Assembly (NCBI GenBank): GCA_963662715.1
Contig: OY759724.1
Location: 2,843,339-2,907,338, forward strand
Direction of reading: 5' to 3'
Length of the DNA: 64,000 nucleotides
DNA from: Candidatus Omnitrophota bacterium
Lineage (GTDB): Bacteria > Omnitrophota > Gorgyraeia > Zapsychrales > JANLHA01
The translations under genes were made by a program, and so were the position numbers. The notes beneath the pieces were generated by a model. The model saw only the letters and a list, made by a program, of their open reading frames with translations. It made no database searches and was not told where the DNA came from. Shown piece after piece: positions 13,451 through 44,156 of this stretch. Within the stretch, counting starts at the first letter, position 1. Every line of letters starts with the position of its first letter.

Positions 13451-13452
13451 AC

Positions 13453-14841: not shown

Positions 14842-14842
14842 T

Positions 14843-16108
14843 ATGCTCAAGGCCTACCCCCGACATTCCGTGGATATTACAAAGCATGATTATAAACGGA
14901 TGCTTGCTTTTTTGTTCGCCCCCCGGTCCGTCAAAGCCGGATATCTGAAGCGGTTCGAGCAATCATTCGCCGGATATATCGGGACGCGGTTCGCTTTGTC
15001 CATGCCTTCCGCCAGGCTCGGTCTTTATGTCGTGTTGAAATATTTTAATTTCCCCGAGGGGACGGAAGTTATTATCACGCCTTTCACCCATCAGAGTATC
15101 TTCACGGTTCTCAAAACATTCCGGCTGAAGCCTGTTTTTGTTGACATAGACCCCAAGACCCATAACACCAATCCTTCTTTGGTCAAACAGTGTATCTCAG
15201 AAAAAACGCGCCTTATGGTTTTGACCCACATGTGGGGGCAGGCCTGTGATATGGACGCTTTTATGACGCTGAAAGAGGAATACGGCCTGAAAATCATTGA
15301 AGACTGCGCCATGGCGGCCGGGGCCGTTTATAAAGGCAAAAAAGTAGGCAGTTACGGAGATGCCAGCATATTTAGTTTCGGGAAGGCGAAAGCCATTTGT
15401 GCTTTCGGAGGAGGAATGTTGTGCCTGAATGACGAGAAGATGCATGAGTTTGTCGCTTCGGTCATTAAGGATTTTCAGCCGCCCCGGCCGTTTTCTCTGG
15501 TCTTTTCCGTGATCAATTCCGTGGTCGCCAATGTCCTCACCCGTCCGCGATGTTTTTTCCTGTCGCTTTATCCGGTTATGCGGCTTTTTAATCTCAGAGA
15601 CCCCTACAATCCGGTTGAGCATAAAAAGGATTCCGAAGTCATTCTGGAGCAGATGCCGGAAGAATGGAAAGTCCGGTTATCGTCTTTTCAGGCGGCCATA
15701 GGCCTTGAACAGCTTAAGACTTTGGAAGAACGCAATGACCGCAGAACCCAAAATGCCCGGATTTTGAACTATGCCTTGAAGGACGTCCCGGATATTGGTC
15801 TGCCGGAGACGTCAGAACGCGGGCAGCATATTTATCTCTACTATGCGGTTCACATAAAGAAGAAAACCGATCTGGACAATCTCCGGAAGAAACTGTTGGC
15901 GCGGGCCGTGGATACCCAGCTGAATGAATTGACGAATCCCGAGCAGTTAAGCATTTTTGGCGCGGACAGCGGGTCTTTTCCGGTCTTTGACAAGATCTCT
16001 CCCAACATTCTTGTTATTCCCAACGGAATAATGCTGAATGAGCAGGATATCCATGCGGTGGCACAGGCGGTCAGGGAATGCCTTGGGCCCGGCGGGGGTG
16101 AGATGTAA
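14843..16108 (+). CDS. DegT/DnrJ/EryC1 (ArnB-like) PLP-dependent aminotransferase
   Basis: 421 aa. DegT family pattern with the putative PLP-lysine in FSFGKAKAICAFGGGML. Confidence 0.8.
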   Translation: MLKAYPRHSVDITKHDYKRMLAFLFAPRSVKAGYLKRFEQSFAGYIGTRFALSMPSARLGLYVVLKYFNFPEGTEVIITPFTHQSIFTVLKTFRLKPVFVDIDPKTHNTNPSLVKQCISEKTRLMVLTHMWGQACDMDAFMTLKEEYGLKIIEDCAMAAGAVYKGKKVGSYGDASIFSFGKAKAICAFGGGMLCLNDEKMHEFVASVIKDFQPPRPFSLVFSVINSVVANVLTRPRCFFLSLYPVMRLFNLRDPYNPVEHKKDSEVILEQMPEEWKVRLSSFQAAIGLEQLKTLEERNDRRTQNARILNYALKDVPDIGLPETSERGQHIYLYYAVHIKKKTDLDNLRKKLLARAVDTQLNELTNPEQLSIFGADSGSFPVFDKISPNILVIPNGIMLNEQDIHAVAQAVRECLGPGGGEM

Positions 16109-16111
16109 GAT

Positions 16112-17425
16112 ATGATAAAGGATGATAAGTTCAGTCACATCGTCAGGGCGACTGAAAGCGTGTGTCCGGTTTGTCTGGACTCCGTTCAGGCATTGGTGCA
16201 AATCCGGGGGGAGTCTGTTTATCTTGAAAAGACATGTCCCCGGCACGGAGATTTCCGCGTCCTCTTATCGAAACACGCCAAAGATTATAAGGAGTTGTCG
16301 GATTGCTATTTCTATTTTATCCCGCAGGCTTTGGTGCAGAAAGAATATTACCTCTGCGCAACCATGCAGTGCAATATCTCCTGCCCGATTTGTTTTCTGG
16401 ATTACTGTCAGGACAGGCAGGACCTCTCTTTTGAACGTCTGGCAGACAACCTCCGCGATAAAACAGACGTGGAAAGATTTACTTTTTCCCATGGCGAACC
16501 GACCGTCAGTCCGCAATTACCCGATATGATCCGGGCTTTGAAACGGGCGAATAAACTGGTTAACATTCATACCAACGGCGTCAGACTGGCGGATTATGAT
16601 TATGCGCTTTCCTTGAGGAACGCCGGGCTCGACCATGTCAGCCTGCAGTTCGATGGTTTCCGGGACGAGATTTATCAGGCTCTCCGGGGGGCGCGGTTAT
16701 TGGATGTTAAATTAAAAGCTCTGGAGAACCTCAAACGTTTATCCTTGCCGGTCACTTTAAATGTCACGGTGGCCAAGGAGGTGAACGATGATGAATGCGG
16801 CCGGATCTTCGATTATGTCGTTAAAAATGATTTCATGAAAGACCTGAGTTATATCACTTATTGCCATTATTCTCCTGACGATAAGGATATGGAACGTTAT
16901 ATGATGCCCGATGATCTTTTGGTTATTCTGGAAAAACACACCCAAGGCCGGCTGCAAAGAGAAAATATCATCCATTTTCAGAAACTATATTATGCTTATC
17001 TCAGTGCGTCGCATAAGAGAAAATGCTTCAATTATTATCATTATTTTATCGTCCGGACAAAGACAGGCTATCGCGGAATCGACCAGTACCTGGATTTAAA
17101 AAAGATCGCGCGGGCCATAGACCGCTGCAAAGATCAAAAGAAGAAGATGACGCGCTGGAGGCTTTATAAAATATTGCTGACATCCTTGAAAAAATCCAGC
17201 CTGTTTTTGATCCCTTATGGGGTGTCCCTGGTGTTGAGAGGGGGATATCCCAAAAAACCGGGACGGTTCCTGGTGGTGACCTTTGCCAGTATCTGTGACC
17301 CTTATAAGTATGATGCCACGGTCGCTTTGAATTGCGGGCAGGGGATTGTGACGCAGAAAAATGAACAGGAAAGTTACGGTTCATATATTATCGAAGAAAT
17401 GAAAACTTTAAGAGTCCAGTCATGA
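16112..17425 (+). CDS. Radical SAM protein with N-terminal Cys-rich ribbon; COG1964 / Tes-GDGT-MAS-like family (paralog 2 of 3)
   Basis: 437 aa. CPVC...TCPRHG, then CNISCPIC. LQFDGFRDEIY. C-terminal ICDPYKYD. Confidence 0.65.
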   Translation: MIKDDKFSHIVRATESVCPVCLDSVQALVQIRGESVYLEKTCPRHGDFRVLLSKHAKDYKELSDCYFYFIPQALVQKEYYLCATMQCNISCPICFLDYCQDRQDLSFERLADNLRDKTDVERFTFSHGEPTVSPQLPDMIRALKRANKLVNIHTNGVRLADYDYALSLRNAGLDHVSLQFDGFRDEIYQALRGARLLDVKLKALENLKRLSLPVTLNVTVAKEVNDDECGRIFDYVVKNDFMKDLSYITYCHYSPDDKDMERYMMPDDLLVILEKHTQGRLQRENIIHFQKLYYAYLSASHKRKCFNYYHYFIVRTKTGYRGIDQYLDLKKIARAIDRCKDQKKKMTRWRLYKILLTSLKKSSLFLIPYGVSLVLRGGYPKKPGRFLVVTFASICDPYKYDATVALNCGQGIVTQKNEQESYGSYIIEEMKTLRVQS

Positions 17426-18999
17426 AAATTGCCTTTGTCAATGATTCCTGCGAACGGTTAGGCGTGGAGTACATTTCGGCCGTCCTTAAACAACACGGCC
17501 ACACCGTTAAGCTCTTCGCCGATCCCCAGCTGTTTAATGACGAAAATTTCACCATCGCTCCTTTCGCAAGGTTTTTTGACTATACGGAAGAACTTGTCGC
17601 GGATATCAAGGCGTTTCAGCCGGATTTAATCGCATTTTCCGTCGTGACCGACTTTTATCAATGGGCCTGCCGCCTGGCCAGGCGGATTAAGTCTGAGATG
17701 GATGTCCCGGTCCTTTTCGGCGGTATTCATGCCACTTCCGTACCTGAAAAAGTCCTGCAGCAGGATTGTGTCGATATGGTCTGCCGGGGGGAGGGGGAAT
17801 ACGCTCTTTTGGATCTTGTCACGAGTATGGAGCGGGGGGCGATAGATTATGCCACCCGGAATATTTGGTTTAAAAAAGACGGCCGGGTTATTAGGAATGA
17901 AGTCCGCCCGTTGATAGAGAACCTGGATGAGCTTCCTTTTGCGGACAAAGATCTTTTTTACGAAGCCAGCGCCCATTTTTCCCGGTGTTATTTCTTAATG
18001 ACCAACCGCGGGTGCGCCTATGCCTGTAGTTATTGCTGCAATTCGTTCCTTAAAAAATTTTATCAGGACAAGGGGAAATATCTGCGGTTCCGCAGCGTCT
18101 CTAACGTTATCCGGGAACTGGTATGGGCCAAGGAAAAGTACGGTATCCGCATGATCCGTATCCACGACGATGATTTCCTGACCCATGACGTCAAGTGGTT
18201 CGAAGAATTTTCCGGGCAGTATGCCGGGCGGATCAAAGCCCCGTTCGCCTGTTTTACTCATCCCAACAGCGTGACGGAACGCAAGGCCGCTCTTCTTAAG
18301 AAAGCGGGCTGTCATGATATCGAAGTGGGGGTCCAGTCCATCTCCGCCAAAACACGTTACGAGGTCTTAAACCGCCGTGTTTCCGATGAGCAGTTAAGCA
18401 AAGCCATCCGCATCTTAAAAGACGCCGGGATCAAAGTTATCACGGATAATATCCTGGGGCTCCCGCACCAAAGTGATCAGGAACTGCTGGATCTTATGAG
18501 ATTTTATAATAAAAACCGGATCATGAAGATTTACTGTTTTGGGTTCCGGCACTACCCGGCCACGGATATCGTGGAGTATTCCCGAAAAGCCTCTTTGCTG
18601 ACCCGGGAGGATGTTGAGAACCTGGAAAACGGCGTGAATGTCAAAACATTCATCCAGAGCGGGGATATCTTAAGCCGGGAAGCCAAACAGCTGCAGACTT
18701 TCTTTGCGTTTCTGCTTTATCTTCCGGAATCCTTTAACAATTTTATACTGAACAGAAAATTGTACCGTTTTTTCATTCCGTTACCGTATTATATTCTTGT
18801 TATTTTCTCCAACTGGCTGAGGATCCCGTATCGTTACAACTGGGCGTTGCACATTACGGTTTGCCGTTACGGCACATATATTTTCAGGCGTTTCAAGAGC
18901 AAGCTGCGGTTTCCCGGGATGTTTGCCCGGGGAAAAAGAACTGATTTTATTCTTAAACATCCCGTAGGGCAGGAATGCGGTTCAGGAGAGAGGGCTTGA
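17422..18999 (+). CDS. Cobalamin-binding-domain radical SAM enzyme (class B-like), tandem paralog 1
   Basis: 525 aa. N-terminal B12-binding Rossmann domain (MKIAFVNDSCERLGVEYISAVLK...FGGIHATSVPE...CRGEGEY), then radical SAM CAYACSYC. Start overlaps the upstream stop (ATGA). Confidence 0.85.
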   Translation: MKIAFVNDSCERLGVEYISAVLKQHGHTVKLFADPQLFNDENFTIAPFARFFDYTEELVADIKAFQPDLIAFSVVTDFYQWACRLARRIKSEMDVPVLFGGIHATSVPEKVLQQDCVDMVCRGEGEYALLDLVTSMERGAIDYATRNIWFKKDGRVIRNEVRPLIENLDELPFADKDLFYEASAHFSRCYFLMTNRGCAYACSYCCNSFLKKFYQDKGKYLRFRSVSNVIRELVWAKEKYGIRMIRIHDDDFLTHDVKWFEEFSGQYAGRIKAPFACFTHPNSVTERKAALLKKAGCHDIEVGVQSISAKTRYEVLNRRVSDEQLSKAIRILKDAGIKVITDNILGLPHQSDQELLDLMRFYNKNRIMKIYCFGFRHYPATDIVEYSRKASLLTREDVENLENGVNVKTFIQSGDILSREAKQLQTFFAFLLYLPESFNNFILNRKLYRFFIPLPYYILVIFSNWLRIPYRYNWALHITVCRYGTYIFRRFKSKLRFPGMFARGKRTDFILKHPVGQECGSGERA

Positions 19000-20333
19000 T
19001 GAAGACCTATTTTATAACAGCTTCGACATTCTGCATGGAAAGAATGCTGGACTGCCAGAAAATTTCCGATTACTTAAAAATGAACGGCTGGCGGCCGGTG
19101 AGGCGGATCAAGAAAGCCGGTTTGATTATTGTCAGCACATGTTCTTTCGGCCGGGAAGAAGACGATAGCTCGCTCGATTATATCCGGTTTTACCTGCGCC
19201 GGAAGTTGCCTGAAGCACAATTTTTTATCATCGGGTGCGTGCCGGCGATCAATCCCGAACAGCTTGCCTCTCTGGGCGATATCCCCACGCTTTCTCCCAC
19301 CACGTTGTCCCGGCTCGACACTTTGCTGCAGCCGTCTGTGAAATTCGCGGATGTCCCGGAGCCGAACAAGATTCTTGCCGCGGAGGTCATGCACAGCGTT
19401 TTTTTGAAAAAAGCTCTCTGGCTCCGGTCCTACGTGCGGCAGGCCTTGAAGGATGTCCCGCCCGGCCCGGCGGTTCTGAGAAAAGGGGGGCAAGCGCTGA
19501 AAACCGGGATCAAGTACTTTCCGGTGCTGAAATCACACATTAATCCTTTCCTCTCCTGCAACCGGAACGGATTTTATTATCTGCGGATTTCCAAAGGGTG
19601 TCTGGGGAGCTGCAGCTACTGTGCCAAGAGACATTCTACCGGGCGGCTCAGGAGCAAACCGGATGATATGATCGTTCAGGAGTTTCAAAAAGGATTGCAA
19701 GCCGGGGAGAAAAGGTTCTACCTCTTAACGGAAGACGTCGGGTGCTACGGAATTGATCAGGAAACGACTGTCATGGCTCTGCTGAAAAGGATATTTGCTG
19801 TGGGGCATGCCCAGGAATTCCGGATTGTTGTTTCCAATTTTAACGCCCGCTGGTTTGTCAAGTATTATGACGAACTGGAAGAGCTCTTTGTGAAATATCA
19901 GACCAAAATTCTTTATGTGCAGATTCCGATCCAATCCGGGAGTACGCGGATTTTAGGGCTGATGGACCGGCATTATACGGCGGAAGACCTGAAAGAAAAA
20001 CTGCTGGCTTTAAGGCGCAAGGCCCCGGCGCTTAACCTAACGACAGACATGATTGCCGGTTTTCCCGGAGAAACCGATGAGGATTTTGAATTAACCAAGC
20101 AGTTCGTCTCTGAAATCCGGTTTCAGCATATTGATATTTTTGGATATGAACACCGGCCCAACACCCGGGCGGGGGCCCTGACGGGGCAGCTTTCCCAGGA
20201 AGTGATAGACCAAAGGGTTTTCGAACTCGCCCGATGGCAGAATAAATATTCCCAAACAAGGACTGTCATCGGCAAATTGATCGAGGTGGCCAAGGAAAAT
20301 GCGCAGCGGTACCGGACGAATTCAAGACAATAA
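18999..20333 (+). CDS. MiaB/RimO-family methylthiotransferase-like radical SAM protein with no evident TRAM domain
   Basis: MTTase N-domain cysteines (TFCMER...STCSF...GCVPA) and radical SAM motif CLGSCSYC. The C-terminus is short with no TRAM beta-barrel. Start chosen as MKTYFITAS at 18999, which overlaps the upstream stop by 1 nt (TGATG). An in-frame ATG also exists at 18975. Confidence 0.65.
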   Translation: MKTYFITASTFCMERMLDCQKISDYLKMNGWRPVRRIKKAGLIIVSTCSFGREEDDSSLDYIRFYLRRKLPEAQFFIIGCVPAINPEQLASLGDIPTLSPTTLSRLDTLLQPSVKFADVPEPNKILAAEVMHSVFLKKALWLRSYVRQALKDVPPGPAVLRKGGQALKTGIKYFPVLKSHINPFLSCNRNGFYYLRISKGCLGSCSYCAKRHSTGRLRSKPDDMIVQEFQKGLQAGEKRFYLLTEDVGCYGIDQETTVMALLKRIFAVGHAQEFRIVVSNFNARWFVKYYDELEELFVKYQTKILYVQIPIQSGSTRILGLMDRHYTAEDLKEKLLALRRKAPALNLTTDMIAGFPGETDEDFELTKQFVSEIRFQHIDIFGYEHRPNTRAGALTGQLSQEVIDQRVFELARWQNKYSQTRTVIGKLIEVAKENAQRYRTNSRQ

Positions 20334-20335
20334 AC

Positions 20336-21844
20336 ATGATGAAGAAAAAAGGTTTGAAAATTGCTTTTGTCAATGATTCCTGCGAGCATTTAGGGGTTGA
20401 GTATATATCAGCCGTCTTGAAGGCCGCAGGCCATCAGACGCAACTGTTTGTCGACCCCTTGTTATTTGATGATGAATTTATTACGGTCAAAGCCCTAAGC
20501 AAGTGTTTTGATTATAAAACGAAAATTATCAAGGAATTAAAAAGTTACGGGCCTGACCTTATCACCATGTCGGTTGTCTCCAGTTTTTATCCCTGGGCTT
20601 CCGGTATGGCGCGTTTAATCAAACAGGAGATTCCTGTTCCCGTCATTATGGGCGGCGCTCATCCCACGGCTGTCCCGGAGAGGGTCATTCAGAATGAGTT
20701 TGTTGATATGGTCTGTGTCGGAGAAGGGGAGTATTCTATGCTGGAGCTGGCCAACAGCATGGCGGCGGGCAAGGTCGATACCACTATTAAGAATATCTGG
20801 TTTAAACAAGACGGACGGATCATACGCAATGAGCTGCGGCCCCTTATCGATAACCTGGATGAGCTTCCCATGCCGGATAAGGAGCTTTACTATTCCGCCA
20901 GCCCGCATTTTTCCCAAAGCTATTATATTACCGCCAGCCGGGGGTGTCCTTATGCCTGCAGTTATTGCTGCAACTCTTACCTGCGGTCCCTGTATAAAGG
21001 GCTGGGGCCTTATCGTCGTCAGCGCAGCCCAGGTCATGTGATCGGGGAATTGGTCGAGGCGAAAAAACGCTTTGCCATTGATCCGGTTTTCTTCCTGGAT
21101 GACTGCTTTGCCTACGATCTTCAGTGGCTTAAAGAGTTTGCCCCGGCCTACCGGAAGCAGGTCGGCATAAGATTTTATTGTATGATGTTCCCTGACGATA
21201 AAATGGAGGAAGCCTTAAAATATCTGAAATTAGCCGGATGCGGAGAGATTGAAATCGGGGTGCAGTCCTGGGATGAAGATGTCCGGCGGAATATTTTTCA
21301 CCGCCGTGTTTCAAACGAGACGATGATCCGGACGATGAAGCTTATTAAAAAAGAGAATATCAATCTGGTGACCGGAGATATTCTGGGCTACCCGGGACAA
21401 AGAGAAGAGCATATCCTGAAGGCCGCGCATATTTATACGGAGATAAAACCCAGCCGGACCTATTCTTTTATCCTGAAATATTTCCCCAAAACACAGATCA
21501 CGGAAGAGGCGGTTAAAAAGGGCCAGCTAAAAGGTGAGGATGTGGAAAAGATCCTGGACGGGCATTACGGGAAATATCTGTCGAAAGACGGGAGCATGAC
21601 GGAAAAAGAGGTGATGCAGTATCTGTTCCTTTTCCTGCTTGTGCGCATCCTGCCCGTCCGGATGGCGCGGGCTGTTATCCGTAAACGTCTCTACCGGAAA
21701 TTTCCGGTGGTTCTTACGCCGGCCGCCATCTCCATTTTGAACAATTTTTCGACATCCACTTTTGAATCTAAAATTAACCGGCGAAGCGCATGGCACCGGT
21801 ATATTTATTTTTTAAAGAAGATGTTCTTTAAAGGCAAACGATGA
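20336..21844 (+). CDS. Cobalamin-binding-domain radical SAM enzyme (class B-like), tandem paralog 2
   Basis: 502 aa. KIAFVNDSCEHLGVEYISAVLK. CPYACSYC. Confidence 0.85.
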   Translation: MMKKKGLKIAFVNDSCEHLGVEYISAVLKAAGHQTQLFVDPLLFDDEFITVKALSKCFDYKTKIIKELKSYGPDLITMSVVSSFYPWASGMARLIKQEIPVPVIMGGAHPTAVPERVIQNEFVDMVCVGEGEYSMLELANSMAAGKVDTTIKNIWFKQDGRIIRNELRPLIDNLDELPMPDKELYYSASPHFSQSYYITASRGCPYACSYCCNSYLRSLYKGLGPYRRQRSPGHVIGELVEAKKRFAIDPVFFLDDCFAYDLQWLKEFAPAYRKQVGIRFYCMMFPDDKMEEALKYLKLAGCGEIEIGVQSWDEDVRRNIFHRRVSNETMIRTMKLIKKENINLVTGDILGYPGQREEHILKAAHIYTEIKPSRTYSFILKYFPKTQITEEAVKKGQLKGEDVEKILDGHYGKYLSKDGSMTEKEVMQYLFLFLLVRILPVRMARAVIRKRLYRKFPVVLTPAAISILNNFSTSTFESKINRRSAWHRYIYFLKKMFFKGKR

Positions 21845-23337
21845 AAATCGCATTTATCAATGATTCCGCTCAGCAGCTGGGCATTCAGTACATGTCCGCT
21901 GTGCTGAAACAGCACGGCCATGATGTGAGGCTGTTTATGGACCCCCAGCTGTTTGCTGACGATGTTATACAGATCAAAAGGCTCAACCGCCTGCTTGACA
22001 TGAGAAAAGACATCGTCCGGCGGGTCAAGGACTATGCTCCGGATCTGGTCGGCATATCCGTTGTCACTGATTTTTATCAATGGGCCAGCCAGATAGCCCG
22101 GATGATCAAGGATGAAATGGATGTCCCTATCATTGCCGGAGGCATCCATCCGACCTCGGTTCCGGAACGGGTCCTGCAGGATGAATGCTTTGACATGGTG
22201 TGCCTGGGGGAGGGGGAATTTCCGCTTTTGGAATTAGCCGACAGCATGCAAAGAGGAAAAATGGACACCTCCATCCCGAATATCTGGTTTAAAGAAAACG
22301 GCCGGATCATTAAAAATGAACTCCGGCCGCTTCTTGAAGACCTTGACGCTTTGCCGCTGCCGGACACGGACTTGTATTATTCCGTCAGCCCTCATTTTAG
22401 AAGGACCGGGTTGTATATTACGATGACGTCCCGCGGCTGTCCGAATGCCTGCAGTTACTGCTGTTTCTCCTATCTGCAGGACCTGTATAAAGGCAAGGGC
22501 AAACGGATCAGGCAGCGCAGCGTTCAAAATGTGATTGAAGAGTTGAGAATCAATAAGGCAAAATATAAAATAAAGTTTATCGCGTTTATGGATAACTGTT
22601 TCGGGTATGATGTGAAATGGCTCAGGGAATTCACCCCGGTTTACCGTTCGGAAATCGGCATAAAGTTCTGGTGCATCATGCACCCCAAAGACGTTACAGA
22701 AGAAACCCTCCGGCACCTCAAACAGGCCGGATGCCATACCATTGACATGGGCGTGCAGTCCTGGAACGAGGATATACGAAAAGAAGTCCTTCACCGGGAT
22801 GTCGATAACGATACGATGGCCCGGGCTATTCAGATCGTTAAGGATGCCGGGATCGAAATTATGACCGACAGCATTTTTGACCTGCCCGGGCAGACAGAAG
22901 AGGATGTCCTGGAAAGCGCCCGGAGATACGTTGAGATCAGGCCGAAGCGGATATATTTTTACATGTTACGGCATTATCCGAACACCCTCATAACCCGGTT
23001 GGCCAAACAAGATCAGCGGCTTGCGCCGGCCAGGTATGAAGAAGTGATGAGCGGGGTGAATGTCACGTCCTTTACGGTCGGCGGAGACCAGGTCAACCAG
23101 AGAATGATTCAGTTCCAAATCCTGTTTTATTTGATTGATCTGATCCCCAAAAGCATAAGCCGGTATATCATTCGCAAAAGACTTTATCGGTATTTCCCTG
23201 TGGCTTTGGGGCCGGCTATTATTGTCATCCTGCGCAATCTTTTGGCTTTTGATATGAATGCGCGGCTTCAACGCGCCTGGGCTTTTAATCGCTACGCCTA
23301 TTTTATCTGGCAGAAATTAAAACCTTTAAAGAAATAA
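21841..23337 (+). CDS. Cobalamin-binding-domain radical SAM enzyme (class B-like), tandem paralog 3
   Basis: 498 aa. MKIAFINDSAQQLGIQYMSAVLK. CPNACSYC. ATGA overlap with the upstream gene. Confidence 0.85.
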   Translation: MKIAFINDSAQQLGIQYMSAVLKQHGHDVRLFMDPQLFADDVIQIKRLNRLLDMRKDIVRRVKDYAPDLVGISVVTDFYQWASQIARMIKDEMDVPIIAGGIHPTSVPERVLQDECFDMVCLGEGEFPLLELADSMQRGKMDTSIPNIWFKENGRIIKNELRPLLEDLDALPLPDTDLYYSVSPHFRRTGLYITMTSRGCPNACSYCCFSYLQDLYKGKGKRIRQRSVQNVIEELRINKAKYKIKFIAFMDNCFGYDVKWLREFTPVYRSEIGIKFWCIMHPKDVTEETLRHLKQAGCHTIDMGVQSWNEDIRKEVLHRDVDNDTMARAIQIVKDAGIEIMTDSIFDLPGQTEEDVLESARRYVEIRPKRIYFYMLRHYPNTLITRLAKQDQRLAPARYEEVMSGVNVTSFTVGGDQVNQRMIQFQILFYLIDLIPKSISRYIIRKRLYRYFPVALGPAIIVILRNLLAFDMNARLQRAWAFNRYAYFIWQKLKPLKK

Positions 23338-23352
23338 GCGGACTGGCAAATC

Positions 23353-24882
23353 ATGAAAATCGCTTTTGTCAATGATTGTATTGAACGGCTCGGCGTCGAA
23401 TATATTTCCGCTCTTCTGAAGAACGCGGGACACGACGTTAAGCTTTTCGTCGATCCGCAGCTGTTTGATGATGTCCATATTCATCACAAGGCGTTAAACC
23501 GATATTTCGACCACAAGCAAAAGATCATCGCGGACCTGCTGGAATACCGGCCGGACCTGATCGCTTTCTCCGTGGACACAGAATCCTATGCCTGGGCCAG
23601 CGGCATGGCCCGGGCCGTTAAATCCCGCATGGAGGCGCCTGTTATATTTGGCGGGATCCACCCTTCATCCGTTCCTGACCATGTCATCAGGAACGACGCC
23701 GTCGATATCCTGTGCGTCGGCGAGGGGGAATACCCCATGCTGGAACTTGCGGAAAGCATGGCCAGAGGGGAAATGGACACACATATTAGCAATTTGTGGT
23801 TTAAACAGCAGGGAAAGATTGTCAGAAATCCTCTGCGCCCGTTGCTCAAGGACCTCGATGTTCTGCCTTACGCCGATCATGATCTTTTCTACAGTCACAG
23901 CCCGTATTTTCAGCAAGGGTACGGCACCATAGTCTCCCGGGGGTGCCCTTACACTTGCAGTTACTGCTGTCATTCCTATTTGCGCAAGCTCTATCAGGCA
24001 AACGGGACATATCTCCGTCTGCGCAGCGTGAGTAATGTGATTGAAGAATTGAAAGATCATGTGGCGAAATATGATGTCGGGACGATCACTTTTTTTGATG
24101 ATAATTTCGGCTATAATTTCAAATGGCTGGAAGAATTTTCCCGTGAATATGCCCGGGCCATTAAGAAAAGGTTTAAAGTGACGACTCATCCGGAGATTGT
24201 GTCCCGCGAATATATCCGTCTGCTGAAAGACGCGGGCTGCTGTTCGGTGGATCTGGGCATCCAGTCCTGGGATCGGCAGGTGAGACGCTATTGGTTCCAG
24301 AGAGATGTTGAAACAGGCGTGATGCGGCGGGCGATGGAGCTTATCAAAGAAGCACGCCTGGAATTGATCTGCGATAATATTTTTAACGTCCCTGCGCAGG
24401 ATGATGAACAGTATATTCAGACGCTGTTGCCGTATACGGATATTAAACCGCATCGGATCATATTTAACCAGTTGAAATATTATCCCGGCGTGGCCATCAC
24501 CGAAAAGGCCAAAAGGGAGGGGTTCATCGGCGAGGAAAGATACCGCATGATATTGGACGGGGCGGATCAAAAGGGGGTTTATTTGGACGAAGTCGTGCTG
24601 AAAGAGCGGGAACGGAAGAGTTTTGTTAAAATGAAAGTTTTTTTGTATCTCATGGATTGTTTCCCCAAGAAATTTTCCCGCTATGTCATCATGAAAAAGA
24701 TTTACCGTTATTTCCCCGGTATTTTTAACCCGGCGTTTTTTCTGATGTTCCGGACCCTTTTTTCCTCTGATTCCGACACGCAATATTTAAAACAAAGAAC
24801 CTTGGCGAGATACCGTTATCATATCGGCAGACGGCTAAGGTTGAAATTATTTTCAAGGAGACATAATGAACAGTCAAAGTGA
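23353..24882 (+). CDS. Cobalamin-binding-domain radical SAM enzyme (class B-like), tandem paralog 4
   Basis: 509 aa. MKIAFVNDCIERLGVEYISALLK. CPYTCSYC. Confidence 0.85.
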   Translation: MKIAFVNDCIERLGVEYISALLKNAGHDVKLFVDPQLFDDVHIHHKALNRYFDHKQKIIADLLEYRPDLIAFSVDTESYAWASGMARAVKSRMEAPVIFGGIHPSSVPDHVIRNDAVDILCVGEGEYPMLELAESMARGEMDTHISNLWFKQQGKIVRNPLRPLLKDLDVLPYADHDLFYSHSPYFQQGYGTIVSRGCPYTCSYCCHSYLRKLYQANGTYLRLRSVSNVIEELKDHVAKYDVGTITFFDDNFGYNFKWLEEFSREYARAIKKRFKVTTHPEIVSREYIRLLKDAGCCSVDLGIQSWDRQVRRYWFQRDVETGVMRRAMELIKEARLELICDNIFNVPAQDDEQYIQTLLPYTDIKPHRIIFNQLKYYPGVAITEKAKREGFIGEERYRMILDGADQKGVYLDEVVLKERERKSFVKMKVFLYLMDCFPKKFSRYVIMKKIYRYFPGIFNPAFFLMFRTLFSSDSDTQYLKQRTLARYRYHIGRRLRLKLFSRRHNEQSK

Positions 24883-26206
24883 CAGAATGATCCGGGAAAC
24901 GCAAAGTCTATGCCCGGTGTGCGGCCGTAAAATCCAGGCGGCTATTGTCGAGTCGGAAGGCCGTGTTTATTTGAAAAAAAACTGCGGCGAGCACGGCATG
25001 TTCCGGATCAGGGTTTCCAGGCACGCCTGGTACTACAAGGCGCTGACGGACTATTATTTCAGGGTTATGCCGGAGACTATGCCTCAAAAACGTTTTTATA
25101 TTTATTTCAGCAACCGCTGCAATCTGCATTGCCCGATCTGTCTGCTGGAGCCCAACCAGGATAAAATGGCGGATATCGATCTGGAACGTTTTAAAAAGGT
25201 TATCAGGGAAAACCCGAAGTTCCGTTATTACATTTACGGCGCGGAGCCGACATTGCGTCAGGATCTGCCGGAGTGGATCCGGCTGCTGAAAGATTACGGG
25301 AATATGGTCAATATTCACAGTAACGGCATTAAGCTGGATGATTTTGAATATTTGCAGGAACTGCAGGCATGCGGGCTGGATTATCTGAGCCTGCAGTTTG
25401 ACGGTTTTGACGATGATATTTATCTCCGGTTGAGAAACCAGAAGCTGCTGGACAGGAAAATGAAAGTCCTGGAAAATCTGGAAAAGCTGAATATCCCTAC
25501 CGGGCTGAATGTCACAATCGCCAAAAACGTCAACGAAGCCCAGGTGAAGCCCATTATTGATTATGCCGTTAAAAGGCCGTTTATCCGGGATGTGAGTTTC
25601 GCCTCGGTGTCCTTCCTGGGGGATGCGGAAAAGAATTTTTCTGCCGAAGATCTGCTCATGCCGGACGACTTGGTCGACATGGCCGAGGAGCAAACTCAGG
25701 GGGAGATTTCCCGGCGCAGTATGTATCTGTTTCAAAAGTTATATTATGCCGTTTTATCTGTTTTTAACATCCGGCGCTGTTATAATTTTCACCATATGGC
25801 CCTGGTGCGTGACCGGCAAGGTTACCAGACATTTGATGCCCTGTTTGATTTGGCGGATTTTGAAAAGGTCCTGGACAGATATTCTCAATGGGCGGGGAAA
25901 AGCAAAACCAAAGCCTCGTTATATTTCTGGGGGCAGCTTGTGCTGAATATGTTGACCAAAAAGCCCTTTGAAAAATTAAAGACTCTGCCGCTCAACATGC
26001 TTCTGCCGGGGAATATCCGAAGCCCCAAGATCCCGTCGAAAATCTTGCTGGTCAGCTTCGGAACGGTTTGCGACAAGTATAAATATGATTCCGGTATTTC
26101 CAAATACTGCGGACAGGGTTTTGTATTCAATCAAAATGAGGATATCGTTTTGTCCGATTCGATATCCGATGTGACGCTTTTACGTGAGGACCGGCAGTGT
26201 TTGTAG
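24866..26206 (+). CDS. Radical SAM protein with N-terminal Cys-rich ribbon; COG1964 / Tes-GDGT-MAS-like family (paralog 3 of 3)
   Basis: 446 aa. CPVCGRK...NCGEHG, then CNLHCPIC. LQFDGFDDDIY. C-terminal VCDKYKYD. Overlaps the upstream gene by 17 nt. Confidence 0.65.
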   Translation: MNSQSDRMIRETQSLCPVCGRKIQAAIVESEGRVYLKKNCGEHGMFRIRVSRHAWYYKALTDYYFRVMPETMPQKRFYIYFSNRCNLHCPICLLEPNQDKMADIDLERFKKVIRENPKFRYYIYGAEPTLRQDLPEWIRLLKDYGNMVNIHSNGIKLDDFEYLQELQACGLDYLSLQFDGFDDDIYLRLRNQKLLDRKMKVLENLEKLNIPTGLNVTIAKNVNEAQVKPIIDYAVKRPFIRDVSFASVSFLGDAEKNFSAEDLLMPDDLVDMAEEQTQGEISRRSMYLFQKLYYAVLSVFNIRRCYNFHHMALVRDRQGYQTFDALFDLADFEKVLDRYSQWAGKSKTKASLYFWGQLVLNMLTKKPFEKLKTLPLNMLLPGNIRSPKIPSKILLVSFGTVCDKYKYDSGISKYCGQGFVFNQNEDIVLSDSISDVTLLREDRQCL

Positions 26207-26239
26207 TGCGAAACGTTTTTTATTACCGAGCGGGGTACG

Positions 26240-27760
26240 ATGAAAATAGCCTTTGTGAATGATTCCTGTGAACGTTTGGGGGTGGGGTATATTGCCGCCC
26301 TTTTAAGATCCCGCGGGCATGAGGTCCGGATATATATTGACCCGCAATATTTTAAAGACGAAAATATCAACATCAAATATCTGCAGAATATTTGTGATCG
26401 TCAGGCCCGGCTGATATCCCGTCTCAAAACCTATAACCCCGACCTTATCGGCTTTTCTGTTGTCTCCGATTTTTACCCCTGGGCCTGTGCCTTGGCGCAG
26501 TCCATTAAACGGGAGATGGCCGCGCCGATCATCTTTGGGGGGATTCATCCGTCTTCCGTCCCGGACCGCGTTATTCAGAAAGATTTTGTGGATATGGTCT
26601 GTGTGGGGGAGGGGGAATACCCCATGCTGGAGCTTGCGGAGAGCCTGGAACGGGGCAAGATAGATACTTCGATCAAAAATATCTGGTTTAAAAAGAACGG
26701 TACGGTCATAAAGAATGAACAGCGCCTTTTACTGACCGACCTGGACCGGCTCCCGTTTCCGGAAAAAGATCTTTTTTACGCCTCGAGCCCGTATCTGTCG
26801 CGGTGTTACTATATTATGGCGAGCCGGGGATGCGCGTATTCCTGCAGTTACTGCTGTCATTCCTACCTCAGACAAATGTGTCAGGGGAAAGGCCCGTACT
26901 TCAGGCAAAGAAGCGTTGATAATGTCTTGGCGGAACTGATTGAAGCTAAAAACAGGTACCCGGTCAAGTATGTGAGATTTTTTGACGACAGCCTGGGACT
27001 GAATCTCAAATGGCTTAAGGAATTTTCTGAAAAATACCCGAAAACCGTGGGGCTGCCTTTCATGTGTTATATGTATCCCAGCCATATTTCAGAGGTGACG
27101 GCGCACTACCTGAAACAGGCCGGGTGCTGCGAAGTGGAGATCGGTGTTCAGAGTCTTAACGAGGATTTAAGCCGGAATGTTTTGCATCGCAACCTGTCTG
27201 AACAGCAGATCGCGCAAGCTATCGATATCCTTAAAAAGGAAAAAATCCGCCTGGTGGCGGATAACATTGTCGGCCTGCCCGGACAGGAAGAATCGGATAT
27301 CCTTCATATGGCGGAATTTTACAATAAACGGAGAGTGAACAGGATTTATTTTTTCTGGCTGCGTTATTATCCCGGAACAGTGATTGCGGAATATGCCAAA
27401 GAACAGGGGTACCTGAGTGAAGAAGAATATAACAGCATCATGGACGGTCGGCCGAGCCGGCCTTTTTCAAGGGGAGGGAATACTCTGAACCGAAAATGGC
27501 TGGGCCTGCAATTTCTGTTATTTCTTCTTCCTTTTCTCCCGCCACGGATTGTGAACTGGATCATCGAGAAAAAGATTTACAGGCATTTTAATAAAATCCG
27601 TTCTCCGGGGATTTTTACCGCCCTGACAAGTTTGTTCTCAACAGCGTATAATGATAAAATTCTTATCAGGCGGGAACTGGCCCGTTACAGCTGTTTGTTT
27701 AAAAGGCTGCGTGAACCTCAAAAAACGAAAAAAAATCTCCAACGGCCTCCTGTTTTTTAA
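26240..27760 (+). CDS. Cobalamin-binding-domain radical SAM enzyme (class B-like), tandem paralog 5
   Basis: 506 aa. MKIAFVNDSCERLGVGYIAALLR. CAYSCSYC. Confidence 0.85.
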   Translation: MKIAFVNDSCERLGVGYIAALLRSRGHEVRIYIDPQYFKDENINIKYLQNICDRQARLISRLKTYNPDLIGFSVVSDFYPWACALAQSIKREMAAPIIFGGIHPSSVPDRVIQKDFVDMVCVGEGEYPMLELAESLERGKIDTSIKNIWFKKNGTVIKNEQRLLLTDLDRLPFPEKDLFYASSPYLSRCYYIMASRGCAYSCSYCCHSYLRQMCQGKGPYFRQRSVDNVLAELIEAKNRYPVKYVRFFDDSLGLNLKWLKEFSEKYPKTVGLPFMCYMYPSHISEVTAHYLKQAGCCEVEIGVQSLNEDLSRNVLHRNLSEQQIAQAIDILKKEKIRLVADNIVGLPGQEESDILHMAEFYNKRRVNRIYFFWLRYYPGTVIAEYAKEQGYLSEEEYNSIMDGRPSRPFSRGGNTLNRKWLGLQFLLFLLPFLPPRIVNWIIEKKIYRHFNKIRSPGIFTALTSLFSTAYNDKILIRRELARYSCLFKRLREPQKTKKNLQRPPVF

Positions 27761-27798
27761 AGAAATGTTGGCCTTTTGAAAAGAAAGTTTCTGCATCC

Positions 27799-29409
27799 AT
27801 GCGAAAATTCAATTTGTTAGCCGTTTTCTTGAAATACCGCATCCTGTTGCTCGTATTGCTGTTGATTGATATTCTACGAAATCCTTTTTATCTTAATTTT
27901 GTTGAGTCCTCGGACCGCCTGCGGGAATTCTCCAAATACATTTTCTTGAGATCAGCCGTTTTAAATCAAATTATTGACAACGGGGTAACGGTTTTAAATA
28001 AGCAATTTCATTTGTTGCAGGGTGCGTTCACCAATATTTTGCTTTATTTCGGCGGCTATGTTTTGCTGTGTGTCATCTCTGCGGTTTCCCGGAAGAATGC
28101 GGACCGCCGCGCCCATCCGTCCCTTGTCCCGGGAATACTGATTATCCTGTGGTCTTTTATTTACGTTTTTTGTCTGAAGGATTTTCCTCCCGGCATAAGT
28201 TTCTGCCTTATGGCCTGTATGGTCGGGGTTGCGGGCATGGATTTCATCCTTTTTTTCAGGGAAGGTTTTTTCGATAATAAATCTAATAAAAACATTTTTG
28301 CCGGTTTTTTTACGTCCGTTATTTTTCTGAGTGAATTGTTCTGCGCCCCGCTCTATTGGCAATTTTTATGTGTGTTGCAGGGGAAGAAATTCCCGAAAAA
28401 GATTTCCGTTGTTATTCAGCACGGGCATTTTATGCTCTTTATGGCTGTGGCGCTGATTTTCCTGTCTCCCCTTGAGAGCCCGTCCATTATTGAGATGCGA
28501 CAGATCAAAAAAGGCCAGTACTATGGTCTGCAGTATTATAAGGATAATATCCTGGTGGCGCTTAATGATTTCGAAGGACAGGTGGAACGTATCCACGTGG
28601 GTCATGATGTGTCTACAAAGGTCATTTACCGTTCGACGTTTCCCCGGGGCACGGAGGAGGCCATGGGGGAGAGGCTGGCTTTGAGCCCTGAGAGAGAAGA
28701 GGTGTATTTTACGGACAGGAAACAAAGCCAGCTGATCGTTGCGGATGACCGCAGTCAGAAAATAAAAGCAATGATTTCTTCCGATGTCTTCGATATGGGG
28801 GATAATGCTCTTGCTTACATGAACGGTCACGTTTATGGACTTACGGAAGAAAAACTGTGCGTTTATAAAATTGATATGTCGAGCGCCGCTCCCCAACATG
28901 TCCCGCGTTATTGCATCAATGAAGGAGAGGGAGGGATCATCCTGCCTAACGGGCCGCGTAATGTTTTATATGCCGCGAACTGGAATGATCCGGAAAACCG
29001 ATTTTTTATTTATGAGATTGACGGCCAGACACTGGATATTCACAGACGTTTCCCGATGCCGGCTGCCGGAGTGGCTATGGCCGCCGAAAACGGCAAAAAA
29101 CTGTATTGTATCTGGCCAAGGAATCTTTATGTTTTAGATGCCGGGAATTTTCGTGTTGTTGATAAAATGAAGCTTTCTTACGGCCTGATGAACACGTTTT
29201 CCCTGGATGATACGAATCAATTGGTATTCGGGGCGAACCATTTCACCAATATCATCGAAGTCATCGATTTAAAGACCAAGAAAACAGTGCAATATTTCCG
29301 GGCGGGGATCGGCAATTCCCATATCAGCAGAATCACGGTTGATGCGGAGAATAAAAATTTTTATGCCACGGTATTCCGCGACGGCATTTATATGGGGCAT
29401 TATGAATAG
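27799..29409 (+). CDS. Hypothetical polytopic membrane protein with C-terminal predicted beta-propeller-like soluble domain
   Basis: 536 aa. About 6 hydrophobic segments in the first ~230 aa, then repeated beta-strand-rich segments (...LYAANWNDPENRFFIYEIDGQ...LYCIWPRNLYVLDAGNFRVVD...). Confidence 0.35.
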   Translation: MRKFNLLAVFLKYRILLLVLLLIDILRNPFYLNFVESSDRLREFSKYIFLRSAVLNQIIDNGVTVLNKQFHLLQGAFTNILLYFGGYVLLCVISAVSRKNADRRAHPSLVPGILIILWSFIYVFCLKDFPPGISFCLMACMVGVAGMDFILFFREGFFDNKSNKNIFAGFFTSVIFLSELFCAPLYWQFLCVLQGKKFPKKISVVIQHGHFMLFMAVALIFLSPLESPSIIEMRQIKKGQYYGLQYYKDNILVALNDFEGQVERIHVGHDVSTKVIYRSTFPRGTEEAMGERLALSPEREEVYFTDRKQSQLIVADDRSQKIKAMISSDVFDMGDNALAYMNGHVYGLTEEKLCVYKIDMSSAAPQHVPRYCINEGEGGIILPNGPRNVLYAANWNDPENRFFIYEIDGQTLDIHRRFPMPAAGVAMAAENGKKLYCIWPRNLYVLDAGNFRVVDKMKLSYGLMNTFSLDDTNQLVFGANHFTNIIEVIDLKTKKTVQYFRAGIGNSHISRITVDAENKNFYATVFRDGIYMGHYE

Positions 29410-29458
29410 AGCCCAAGATGCAAGCGGGGGAAACTTTACAAGAAACGGATGAGGCAAC

Positions 29459-30499: not shown

Positions 30500-30517
30500 A
30501 AAGGCCATTGTTGATTC

Positions 30518-31246
30518 ATGCTAAATCAAACGATTTCTCTGGTTGTTCCTGTTTATAATGAGGCGGAAATCATCGCGGAAACAGTTGCCGTTTTTGACGA
30601 CGCCTTAAGGAGCATCTGCCGGGATTACGAAATCATTATCGTGGACGACGGAAGCGTTGATGAAACCCCGGGGATTCTTCAGCGCCTCTGTTCCCAGCAC
30701 GTTCGTTTAAAGATTATGCATAATTCTGCCAATATCGGAAGCGGGGCCAGCCTTTGGCGGGGCTTTCAGCAGGCGGGCAAAGACCTTGTCGTCAGCAATT
30801 TCGCGGACAGGCCTTTTGATGTTACGGAGCTGGGAAGAATTATCCCGTCCGTTGATTTCAGCGCCACAGACTTCGTCGTGGTTGTCCGGCAGGACAGAAG
30901 CGCAAACACACCCTATCGTAAGATCACGTCTTTGACGAATTATTGGCTTATCCGATGCCTTTTCCGAATTGAGATTTCTGATTTCCAATTTGTGCAGATT
31001 TACAGGCGGGACATCCTGAAGGGCGTTCGCATTGACTCCCAGGAAACATTTGTTCCCCCCGAGCTTATGATCAGGCTGATTCAAAAGGGATATCGGTATC
31101 AGGAGGTTGTTTCTTCTTTTTATAGACGGCCCGGGGGCCAGCCCAAGTGCGGTCATCCCGGGAAAATCATGAAAAGTATATTTGATATTTTAAAATTTTG
31201 GATATCCTGGGAAATCTTGGGGAAAAAGGACGGAGGGGAGCGATGA
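30518..31246 (+). CDS. GT2 glycosyltransferase, polyprenol-phosphate sugar transferase type (ArnC/DPM1-like)
   Basis: 242 aa. N-terminus SLVVPVYNEAEIIAETVAVF...YEIIIVDDGSVDETPGIL is the GT-A DXD region of ArnC/DPM1-like enzymes. Confidence 0.8.
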   Translation: MLNQTISLVVPVYNEAEIIAETVAVFDDALRSICRDYEIIIVDDGSVDETPGILQRLCSQHVRLKIMHNSANIGSGASLWRGFQQAGKDLVVSNFADRPFDVTELGRIIPSVDFSATDFVVVVRQDRSANTPYRKITSLTNYWLIRCLFRIEISDFQFVQIYRRDILKGVRIDSQETFVPPELMIRLIQKGYRYQEVVSSFYRRPGGQPKCGHPGKIMKSIFDILKFWISWEILGKKDGGER

Positions 31247-31941: not shown

Positions 31942-31971
31942 AGGGTAGACAAGGAAAAGGAAGATGGTTTT

Positions 31972-44151: not shown

Positions 44152-44156
44152 AATTC

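Follow-up and report, generated by a model that had tools for sequence, protein, structure and literature searches.

The window analyzed here, a 64,000-nucleotide stretch of contig OY759724.1 from a Candidatus Omnitrophota bacterium (assembly GCA_963662715.1, positions 2,843,339 to 2,907,338), contains an operon of 17 genes on the plus strand (11425..33807), in which the gaps between neighboring genes range from -49 to +49 nt. Gene identities were assigned by comparison with Pfam, NCBIfam and the Protein Data Bank (PDB). Ten of the genes encode radical S-adenosylmethionine (rSAM) enzymes, and the CX3CX2C motif is kept in all of them. Two protein classes occur repeatedly: Z1 to Z3 combine a cysteine ribbon domain (Zn_ribbon_HMPTM, PF23545) with a Radical_SAM domain, and B1 to B5 combine a B12-binding domain (PF02310) with a Radical_SAM domain (PF04055). 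The genes are listed in Table 1. A literature search found no description of this operon.

The first-pass annotation of this DNA had noticed that the gene order 16112 (Z2) then 17422 (B1) recurs as 24866 (Z3) then 26240 (B5), and had read this as a segmental duplication of a functional pair. Open reading frames (ORFs) lie exactly at these coordinates, and their domains agree with that description. As stated there, the B gene follows within 40 nt of the Z gene: Z2 and B1 overlap by 4 nt, and 33 nt separate Z3 from B5. The Z genes were also said to overlap or abut the preceding gene, which they do (the aminotransferase gene degTb ends 3 nt before Z2, and B4 overlaps Z3 by 17 nt), but tight packing is common to all 17 operon genes and does not distinguish the two units. 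Beyond what was described earlier, the operon contains a third Z gene (Z1) that is followed by an aminotransferase gene instead of a B gene, and three further B genes (B2 to B4) together with a methylthiotransferase (MTTase)-like rSAM gene lie between the two units. With three Z and five B genes, randomizing the gene order gives at least two Z-B adjacencies in 36% of cases for the 12-gene block and in 19% for the 17-gene operon; the repeated order alone is therefore not beyond chance. It is the phylogenies of the two families, and not the order, that speak for a real relationship of the units.

Similarity of the two units

The two units were compared with each other, and 11-58 kb of the window with itself, by megablast and blastn. 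Megablast yielded no match between 16112..18999 and 24866..27760, and the blastn matches between the units (65-71%) were confined to parts that are conserved among all B paralogs. This self-comparison, the equivalent of the dot-plot proposed with the first-pass annotation, showed family-level similarity only and no recent duplication. The 5' ends of all B genes have stretches of 50-60 nt in common that are about 83% identical, and no nucleotide tract of raised identity beyond that common to all paralogs was found between B1 and B5. Among the Z proteins, Z2 and Z3 are 40% identical, Z1 and Z3 37%, and Z1 and Z2 34%. The profile comparison with hhalign gave a score of 802 for Z2-Z3 versus 683 and 686 for the other Z pairs, and Z2 and Z3 exclusively share 11 conserved residues, versus four and two for the other pairs.

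Phylogeny of the Z and B proteins

Twenty-three related loci were collected, and trees were calculated from 63 Z and 72 B sequences by neighbor joining (NJ) and maximum likelihood (ML); about 15 operon versions from other Omnitrophota were included. B proteins encoded in a second island of the window (see below), which are only distant relatives of B1-B5, served as outgroup. All 23 loci come from Omnitrophota-type metagenome-assembled genomes (MAGs), a few of which were labeled Planctomycetes by their depositors, and in a collection of 185,579 species-representative genomes no member of the Z subfamily turned up outside Omnitrophota-type MAGs. Complete Z2, Z3, B1 and B5 are present together in only about five genomes.

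Each paralog of the window has an orthogroup to itself, in which many genomes are represented, with a support of 86-100% for most (98% for B3 and 100% for B4; B4 in the broad sense is weak, and B2 is separate). Z1 belongs to a separate superclade with 100% support, and additional orthogroups, Z1a, Z1b, B6 and B7, are present in other genomes. Since each paralog has its own orthogroup, all duplications, those of Z as well as those of B, are older than the divergence of the sampled lineages.

Within the two families, the members of the two units group together. Z2 and Z3 are sisters with an NJ bootstrap of 74-78%, an ML log-likelihood difference of 9.0-9.4 and a RELL (resampling of estimated log-likelihoods) value of 0.93. 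B1 and B5 are sisters with an NJ bootstrap of 87-96%, and of 92-100% over five distance corrections (p, Poisson, Kimura and gamma among them); the ML log-likelihood difference is 29-30 (standard deviation, SD, 11), which corresponds to 2.6-2.7 SD, with a RELL value of 0.999. The ratios of paralog to ortholog distance, about 1.4 and about 1.7 for the two duplications, are similar, but saturated. The congruent sisterhood of Z2 with Z3 and of B1 with B5 is as expected from one ancient en-bloc duplication; with three Z groups and about six B groups, we roughly estimate the chance coincidence of both sister relationships at about 0.04.

Gene order in related loci

The order DegTa-SPASM-Z1-DegTb-Z2-B1-MTT-B2-B3-B4-Z3-B5, in which MTT stands for the MTTase-like gene, recurs in L001, L002, L004, L006, L007, L010 and L011, which are independent Omnitrophota contigs. 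Adjacencies were counted in 13 distinct loci after duplicate loci had been removed. Z2 is followed by B1 in ten of these (the exceptions are L003, L015 and L021), and a B12-rSAM gene stands directly after Z3 in 12 of the 13, being B5 itself in five; in L020 it is a fragment too short to assign. The most constant neighbors of the Z genes are not B12-rSAM genes: DegTb stands upstream of Z2 and the SPASM gene upstream of Z1. DegTb-(Z1a/Z1b)-Z2 was found in every locus in which this stretch is visible, and the triad DegTa-SPASM-Z1 is conserved in the related loci.

The contigs L004 (position ~20070) and L011 (~20058), which share 99.97% identity over 20 kb, split completely about 30 nt past the stop codon of Z3; one of them continues with B5 and the other with a B6-type gene. 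The difference amounts to a polymorphism in the copy number of B12-rSAM genes at the strain level; an assembly chimera is the other possibility. In L016 (9314..13867) three B6 copies lie between Z3 and B5, whereas the window has none. The split between L004 and L011 and the variable B6 copies mark the junction between Z3 and the following B gene as a hot spot at which B genes are gained and lost.

Two in-frame fusions were seen in related loci in one assembly each. In L002 (11323..14133) B1 is fused to the MTTase-like protein (936 aa), and in L004 the corresponding genes are in the same frame, parted by a stop codon and 30 nt. In L007 (8582..11338) Z1b is fused to Z2 (918 aa). Both fusions may be read-through mutations or sequencing errors.

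Fusion of Z and B proteins and a minimal cluster

When 1.84 billion representative proteins were searched exhaustively, only 196 relatives were returned at E<=1e-30. One of these, P0249 (950 aa), is a complete B12-rSAM protein fused to a complete Z protein, in the order B-Z, and its gene is identical on six contigs from at least three samples. A minimal cluster of eight genes was found in a divergent lineage (L027, 9020..20998; also L028 and L029). It encodes, in this order, a SPASM rSAM protein, the B~Z fusion P0249, two proteins without assignment (one of them GT-C-like), a Z protein, a B12-rSAM protein, a glycosyltransferase of family 2 (GT2) and a membrane protein. The free Z gene overlaps the following B12-rSAM gene by 4 nt. 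The GT2 is 50% identical to that of the window and the GT-C counterpart is 22% identical to the last protein of the operon; an aminotransferase, MTTase-like, WbqC or flippase-like gene is not present in the L027 cluster. This very divergent version thus has exactly two Z/B pairs, one of which is covalently joined. The idea of a functional pair thereby gains independent support: the fusion, although its order is B-Z, and the second, adjacent Z-B pair support that Z and B enzymes may cooperate physically or sequentially.

More distant relatives of Z were found in other contexts. The closest one outside Omnitrophota (32-34% identity) lies in an Undinarchaeales MAG (L024, 4723..8317) next to a divergently transcribed aminotransferase gene, a second small rSAM gene and a polyprenyl synthase gene, an arrangement that echoes the association of DegTb with Z2. 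In the distant relatives P0274, P0282 and P0338 the ribbon-rSAM part is fused to N-terminal hemerythrin domains, and in one of them also to a P-type ATPase. The domain content of these fusions suggests that sensing of oxygen or metal may be coupled to this rSAM family elsewhere.

Origin of the two units

On balance, we lean towards reading the two units as ancient paralogous Z-B modules that arose by en-bloc duplication and now lie inside one conserved operon. An ancestral adjacent pair, consisting of a rubredoxin-ribbon rSAM gene of the GDGT-MAS/Tes-like type (Z) followed by a cobalamin-binding rSAM gene (B), would have undergone en-bloc duplication earlier than the split of the sampled Omnitrophota lineages, giving Z2-B1 and Z3-B5. 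Single-gene tandem duplications would then have given B2-B4 (and B6 and B7 elsewhere) and Z1 (Z1a and Z1b elsewhere). Domain content, orthogroups, sister relationships, conserved synteny, the B~Z fusion and fold homology are direct observations; that the members of the pair were duplicated together rather than separately is plausible. Of the segmental duplication proposed earlier, the recent event does not stand, while an ancient en-bloc origin is plausible from the sister groupings. The duplication itself is ordinary gene-family evolution.

Several observations weigh against a common duplication of the pair. Within the window alone, the two units are hardly more alike than other combinations of paralogs: the best blastn pair in the island is B2/B5 (70.9% over 433 nt) and not B1/B5 (68.9% over 440 nt), and the protein identity of B1 and B5 (48%) lies inside the 41-49% spread of the other B pairs. 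The mean distance of B5 to B3 (0.836) and to B2 (0.850) is smaller than that to B1 (0.891), the hhalign scores of B2-B3 (1360) and B3-B5 (1310) are above that of B1-B5 (1259), and the three residues exclusively shared by B1 and B5 are equaled by another pair. Concerning the trees, the support for Z2+Z3 is moderate, with a log-likelihood difference of only about 1.6 SD. The signal for B1+B5 comes from the rSAM core alone (alignment columns 170-380, 96%); the N- and C-terminal parts of the B alignment resolve nothing (0% for any pairing), and B1 is a fast-evolving, long-branch group. The ML calculation was home-made (Gonnet-derived matrix, four gamma categories) and compared nearest-neighbor-interchange alternatives only, which is not a full ML search. 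Furthermore, the gene order is not fixed: Z2 is followed by a DegT gene in L003, by B3 in L015 and by Z1b in L021, and right after Z3 stand one to three B6 copies in five loci (in L016 B5 comes after them), a B1-like gene (B1') in L015 and Z1b and then B5 in L019. The L027 cluster was considered as a pre-duplication outgroup and rejected; its free Z protein is unplaced, its two B domains form a group of their own outside B1-B7, and it therefore does not date the duplication. Finally, the neighborhoods of PF23545 rSAM genes in other phyla contain no B12-rSAM partner, so that the Z/B pairing is specific to this type of cluster.

Part of this would also be expected if Z2/Z3 and B1/B5 had arisen by independent single-gene duplications, in a cluster whose B12-rSAM genes are often duplicated, moved or lost, and the Z-B order were a by-product of a B-rich operon. 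Such an origin agrees with the frequency of repeated Z-B adjacencies in random gene orders, with the varying number and order of B genes (zero to three copies of B6 after Z3, B2 and B3 swapped in L003/L005, a rearranged L015), with the different genes right after Z3 in the two almost identical contigs, and with the two L027 B domains being lineage-specific paralogs. We consider it rather unlikely, since Z2 and Z3, and likewise B1 and B5, are each other's closest paralog groups in two independent trees, a coincidence hardly expected by chance, since Z2-B1 is kept in most loci, and since a Z-B pair and a B~Z fusion are seen again in a cluster that has diverged strongly. The affinity of B1 and B5 might, on the other hand, reflect an old gene conversion, a tree artifact caused by the fast B1 lineage, or selection acting convergently on the rSAM core. 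This we judge improbable: the grouping survives the five distance corrections and the ML test with gamma categories, long-branch attraction would draw B1 to the outgroup and not to B5, and no B1/B5 nucleotide tract was seen whose identity is raised above that common to all paralogs. The restriction of the signal to the core, the long branch of B1, and the profile scores and exclusive-residue counts that do not favor B1+B5 would nevertheless fit such an explanation, and the similar 5' stretches of all B genes could seed recombination. For a recent segmental duplication of the 2.9-kb two-gene block in this genome, to which we give virtually no credence, only the collinear gene order speaks; it is refuted by the missing megablast match, the identities of 40% and 48%, which lie inside or slightly above the spread of the other paralog pairs, and the orthologs of each copy in many genomes.

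Z proteins resemble tetraether synthase

To our knowledge, GDGT-MAS is the only enzyme that joins two inert lipid methyl groups. Compared with GDGT-MAS/Tes (M. jannaschii MJ0619; PDB 7TOL/7TOM; NF045702; N-terminal ribbon PF23545), the Z profile matched over almost the whole length (E 1.9e-63, 22% identity), and an AlphaFold2 (AF2) model of Z2 with a mean predicted local distance difference test (pLDDT) value of 88.5 matched 7tom with a Foldseek TMq of 0.81 (E 2e-31). Other solved rSAM structures reached template modeling (TM) scores of <=0.41 and matched in the core only. According to the model, the Z proteins are thus full-length structural homologs of GDGT-MAS. Judged by their profile scores, and by two sequence differences described below, they are not Tes orthologs: NF045702 gave 156, 124 and 161 bits for Z1, Z2 and Z3 at a cut-off of 450, and the best NCBIfam match of Z is the uncharacterized TrsS model (170-180 bits, cut-off 490).

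The rubredoxin motif of GDGT-MAS is C9X2C12X20C33X2H36 (PMC9433317), and the Z ribbon, C18X2C21X20C42X2H45, which is invariant or nearly so, has the identical CX2CX20CX2H spacing. The cysteine ribbon named in the first-pass annotation is, from this motif, a predicted rubredoxin-type iron site. Z and GDGT-MAS also have the same overall architecture: all three Z proteins contain an rSAM core with CX3CX2C, which in Z2 reads C87NISC91PIC94, and a C-terminal domain that bears Cys residues. In contrast, the N-terminal auxiliary [4Fe-4S] segment of GDGT-MAS (C73/C77/C80 and a His) is missing from Z: in the profile alignment the GDGT-MAS sequence CpYdcglcpnh is an insertion without counterpart, and no Cys is conserved between the ribbon and the rSAM motif of Z. 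The C-terminal auxiliary cluster of GDGT-MAS has a fully conserved labile Met, Met439 (PMC9433317). In Z this position is the invariant C395, the Met of HFMDAY being aligned with the Cys of iCDpYkyD. Because C305, C395 and C408 are invariant in Z and a Cys stands at the Met439 position, a C-terminal cluster is likely to be present, but differently ligated. The context differs from that of Tes as well, since Z genes are surrounded by sugar aminotransferase and glycosyltransferase genes, not by archaeal lipid genes, with at least three paralogs per operon.

B proteins and the other operon genes

The B12-binding domain was found in all of B1-B5 with E values from 2e-15 to 3e-20, and the CX3CX2C motifs lie at residues 198-205. 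The AF2 model of B1 (pLDDT 87.1) was similar to TsrM, MgmA, CysS, OxsB, AprD4 and TokK (TM 0.58-0.63, E 1e-16 to 5e-20). PDB matches by sequence had E values of 1e-8 or weaker, the best one for B1 being AprD4, and the best NCBIfam matches of the B proteins were HpnJ and the ladderane lipid B12-rSAM, with all B NCBIfam matches 5-6 fold under the cut-off. The B proteins thus have the N-terminal B12-binding Rossmann domain and the rSAM core of class B rSAM enzymes (TsrM, MgmA, CysS, TokK, OxsB and AprD4; by sequence HpnJ and BchE), but fit no specific subfamily, and five to eight tandem paralogs per operon are unusual. Some class B members (OxsB, AprD4, BchE, HpnJ) are not methylases, and from homology the B proteins may catalyze methylation, cyclization or rearrangement.

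Table 1. Genes of the operon in the order of transcription (positions in the window).
Position	Strand	Product	Domains and matches
11425..12492	+	DegTa, DegT/DnrJ/EryC1-family sugar aminotransferase, operon gene 1	PF01041 E 8e-83
12476..13450	+	SPASM rSAM protein, probably BtrN-like alcohol dehydrogenase partnering the aminotransferase	PF04055 + PF13186; CNLECIHC motif
13453..14841	+	Z1, third Cys-ribbon (rubredoxin-like) rSAM paralog	PF23545 + PF04055
14843..16108	+	DegTb, second sugar aminotransferase	PF01041 E 6e-70
16112..17425	+	Z2, Cys-ribbon rSAM of unit 1, GDGT-MAS/Tes-like, 437 aa	PF23545 + PF04055
17422..18999	+	B1, cobalamin-binding rSAM of unit 1, 525 aa	PF02310 + PF04055; CAYACSYC motif
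18975..20333	+	MTTase-like rSAM, non-canonical	PF00919 (UPF0004) + PF04055
20336..21844	+	B2, cobalamin-binding rSAM paralog	PF02310 + PF04055
21841..23337	+	B3, cobalamin-binding rSAM paralog	PF02310 + PF04055
23353..24882	+	B4, cobalamin-binding rSAM paralog	PF02310 + PF04055
24866..26206	+	Z3, Cys-ribbon rSAM of unit 2, 446 aa	PF23545 + PF04055
26240..27760	+	B5, cobalamin-binding rSAM of unit 2, 506 aa	PF02310 + PF04055; CAYSCSYC motif
27799..29409	+	536-aa protein, N-terminal half hydrophobic, C-terminal half with faint beta-propeller-like signal	sub-threshold DUF6923/YncE matches only
29459..30499	+	LPG_synthase_TM (flippase-like) membrane protein	PF03706 E 9e-21
30518..31246	+	GT2, polyprenyl-phosphate-sugar synthase type (ArnC-like)	PF00535 E 3e-19; best NCBIfam ArnC E 1.4e-18, below cut-off
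31198..31941	+	WbqC-family protein	PF08889 E 5e-74
31972..33807	+	GT-C-type membrane glycosyltransferase (YfhO/AftD-like), last operon gene	PF09586 E 4e-10; PF11847 weak

The closest solved structures of DegTa are sugar and scyllo-inositol aminotransferases and ArnB, and its best NCBIfam matches, all under the cut-off, are PseC, LegC and ArnB. DegTb has its best PDB match in a glutamine--scyllo-inositol transaminase. For the SPASM rSAM protein (324 aa) the best PDB matches are BtrN (E 8e-10) and DesII, and the overlapping DegTa-SPASM gene pair resembles the BtrS/BtrN pair of butirosin synthesis, but the similarity is weak; a gene for 2-deoxy-scyllo-inosose synthase or another aminoglycoside core gene was not found in the window. 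WbqC-family proteins occur in O-antigen clusters. The MTTase-like protein has the UPF0004 and rSAM domains of MiaB and RimO, but no TRAM match, and reaches 223.6 bits with TIGR00089 at a cut-off of 251. A canonical-looking MiaB/MtaB-type methylthiotransferase (UPF0004 and rSAM domains) is encoded upstream of the operon (7212..8513) and is 23% identical to the MTTase-like protein; in L002, L004 and L011, too, the cluster has an ortholog of it upstream.

Promoter-like sites were detected at 11112 and 11300, upstream of the first operon gene; promoter and terminator scans of the window revealed nothing informative beyond these, and an Rfam scan of the whole window showed no riboswitch or other RNA at the gathering threshold. 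Four antisense ORFs on the minus strand were rejected as genes. The ORFs 23665..24783 (372 aa, in B4) and 24908..25735 (275 aa, in Z3) are most likely shadow ORFs, and 17626..17976 (in B1) and 26729..27085 (in B5) were treated as such; none of them has a Pfam match.

Proposed pathway

The neighbors of the rSAM genes encode sugar aminotransferases, an ArnC-like GT2, a WbqC protein, a flippase-like protein and a GT-C enzyme, which argues for the tailoring of a lipid-linked sugar, and the operon probably builds a heavily modified surface sugar-lipid. By their domains, proteins of the aminotransferase, GT2, flippase and GT-C types are encoded together, which may correspond to the Arn and Gtr systems (ArnB, ArnC, flippase, ArnT or YfhO GT-C). 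However, all four score below the equivalog cut-offs, and the genes of ten rSAM enzymes come between those for the aminotransferases and those for transfer; we know of no described Arn or Gtr system with inserted rSAM enzymes. Genes for a UDP-sugar dehydrogenase, decarboxylase or formyltransferase were not found in the operon. B12-type rSAM enzymes acting on amino sugars have precedents in GenK and AprD4 of aminoglycoside synthesis.

By homology to characterized enzymes, the operon would represent an Arn/Gtr-like route of lipid-carrier glycosylation into which a battery of rSAM tailoring enzymes has been inserted, with both the substrate and every catalytic step being putative. The DegT aminotransferases and the BtrN-like SPASM rSAM enzyme would oxidize and aminate a sugar, which the ArnC-like GT2 would move onto a polyprenyl-phosphate-type lipid. 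Using the 5'-deoxyadenosyl radical and the C-terminal auxiliary Fe-S cluster, Z might functionalize or couple unactivated sp3 carbons, and the partner B12-rSAM enzyme might methylate or rearrange a neighboring position. The flippase-like protein would flip the product, and the GT-C enzyme would attach it to an acceptor of the envelope. The chemistry that the first-pass annotation had suggested for the duplicated pair, C-C bond formation or activation by one enzyme followed by methylation by the other, fits the predicted fold homologies to GDGT-MAS and to class B rSAM enzymes.

The rSAM enzymes could instead tailor the hydrocarbon chains of membrane or carrier lipids, as a bacterial analog of the Tes/Gms/Grs/Gmm toolkit known from archaea. 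In that case the chains would be coupled or bridged by Z and methylated or cyclized by the B12-rSAM enzymes, and the glycosyl genes would only add a head group. Archaeal GDGT-tailoring clusters combine the SPASM rSAM enzyme Gms with the B12-binding rSAM enzymes Grs and Gmm, with Tes encoded elsewhere, and tes and mss-hbs clusters are found in bacteria. In archaeal and bacterial lipid clusters, Tes or Mss stands together with SPASM and B12-binding rSAM enzymes (PMC11214058; bioRxiv 10.1101/2023.10.20.563219). The operon described here has the same three rSAM classes (Tes-like, SPASM, B12-binding) clustered, the sole full-length structural relative of Z is the lipid-coupling GDGT-MAS, and the best, though far sub-threshold, NCBIfam matches of the B proteins belong to lipid enzymes (HpnJ and ladderane lipid B12-rSAM). 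The minimal L027 cluster, too, keeps rSAM enzymes, GT2 and GT-C and has no aminotransferase. We regard a lipid-chain substrate as possible, though not as the probable one. Z lacks the N-terminal auxiliary cluster and Met439 and remains far under the Tes cut-off, the short SPASM protein is BtrN/DesII-like and without the extension of Gms, and no lipid synthesis gene lies within the operon, in which sugar-modifying and GT-C genes are coupled to the rSAM genes; the sugar-type aminotransferases, WbqC, the ArnC-like GT2 and the GT-C enzyme point to glycan chemistry. That the cluster matures a ribosomally synthesized peptide with post-translational modifications (RiPP), like proteusin-type clusters with several B12-rSAM C-methyltransferases, is very improbable. 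Neither a conserved small ORF for a precursor nor a protease or ABC exporter gene was found at the window and the related loci, the only small upstream gene (10639..11028) encodes a type IV pilin-like protein and is not conserved at other loci, and glycan-type genes are conserved alongside the rSAM genes. Weak matches of B proteins to the RiPP methyltransferase models ApyD and rSAM_ocin_1 point in that direction, and aminotransferases are known in some RiPP pathways.

As a rather speculative extension, we tentatively suggest a pathway not described so far, in which an amino sugar linked to polyprenyl phosphate, or its lipid, is attacked at unactivated carbons by one Z+B module after another in repeated rounds. 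The result would be an Omnitrophota-specific, heavily C-methylated and/or cross-linked envelope glycolipid. If this were true, each module would consist of a Tes-like rSAM enzyme forming C-C or C-S bonds and a cobalamin-dependent rSAM enzyme, and the B~Z fusion would point to a complex in which the two enzymes are physically joined. The operon would then correspond, in bacteria, to the toolkit with which archaea tailor GDGT, here connected to export and transfer of the Arn type.

Surroundings of the operon

A second island of the same logic lies at 38386..58789 of the window. It encodes five B12-binding rSAM proteins (38386, 41165, 42745, 50230, 53681), DegT aminotransferases (39891, 46108), an LPG_synthase_TM protein (44157), a 330-aa rSAM protein (45074), a PMT_2-type GT-C enzyme (47444), an asparagine synthase (51716), a GT2 (56719) and a glycosyltransferase of family 9 (57563). 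Two genes on the minus strand (33819..36793) are convergent with the end of the operon. One encodes a protein of 497 aa without Pfam match and the other a 499-aa rSAM protein with a CPCSCSYC motif, in which no B12-binding domain was detected; the latter is weakly similar to the B12-rSAM lipid and HpnJ models and shares about 28-30% identity with B-family relatives.

The type IV pilin-like gene at 10639..11028, with the N-terminal methylation motif GFTLVE, is located immediately upstream of the operon; pilins are common targets of glycosylation. Possible defense genes flank the region at 8538..9419 and 61610..63589; the product of one has a TIR effector domain of the CAP12/Pycsar type (E 1e-10), and that of the other is an AAA_15/AAA_21 (AbiEii-like) ATPase.

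Implications for Omnitrophota and the Z family

Omnitrophota are abundant and mostly uncultured nanobacteria, some of which are predatory or host-dependent. An Omnitrophota-specific operon with ten rSAM enzymes, in which Tes-like enzymes are wired to glycan transfer, is more interesting than the duplication itself. Because rSAM enzymes serve where ordinary chemistry fails, the product of the operon must be chemically unusual. That Z and B12-rSAM genes go together, were probably duplicated pairwise and have even become fused provides a concrete handle on the pathway. The Z subfamily, without the N-terminal cluster and with a Cys in place of Met439, is a natural variant for probing whether tetraether synthase works through a C-S intermediate, as has been proposed. 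A lipid product, if that is what the operon makes, could in addition bear on the reading of sedimentary lipid biomarkers.

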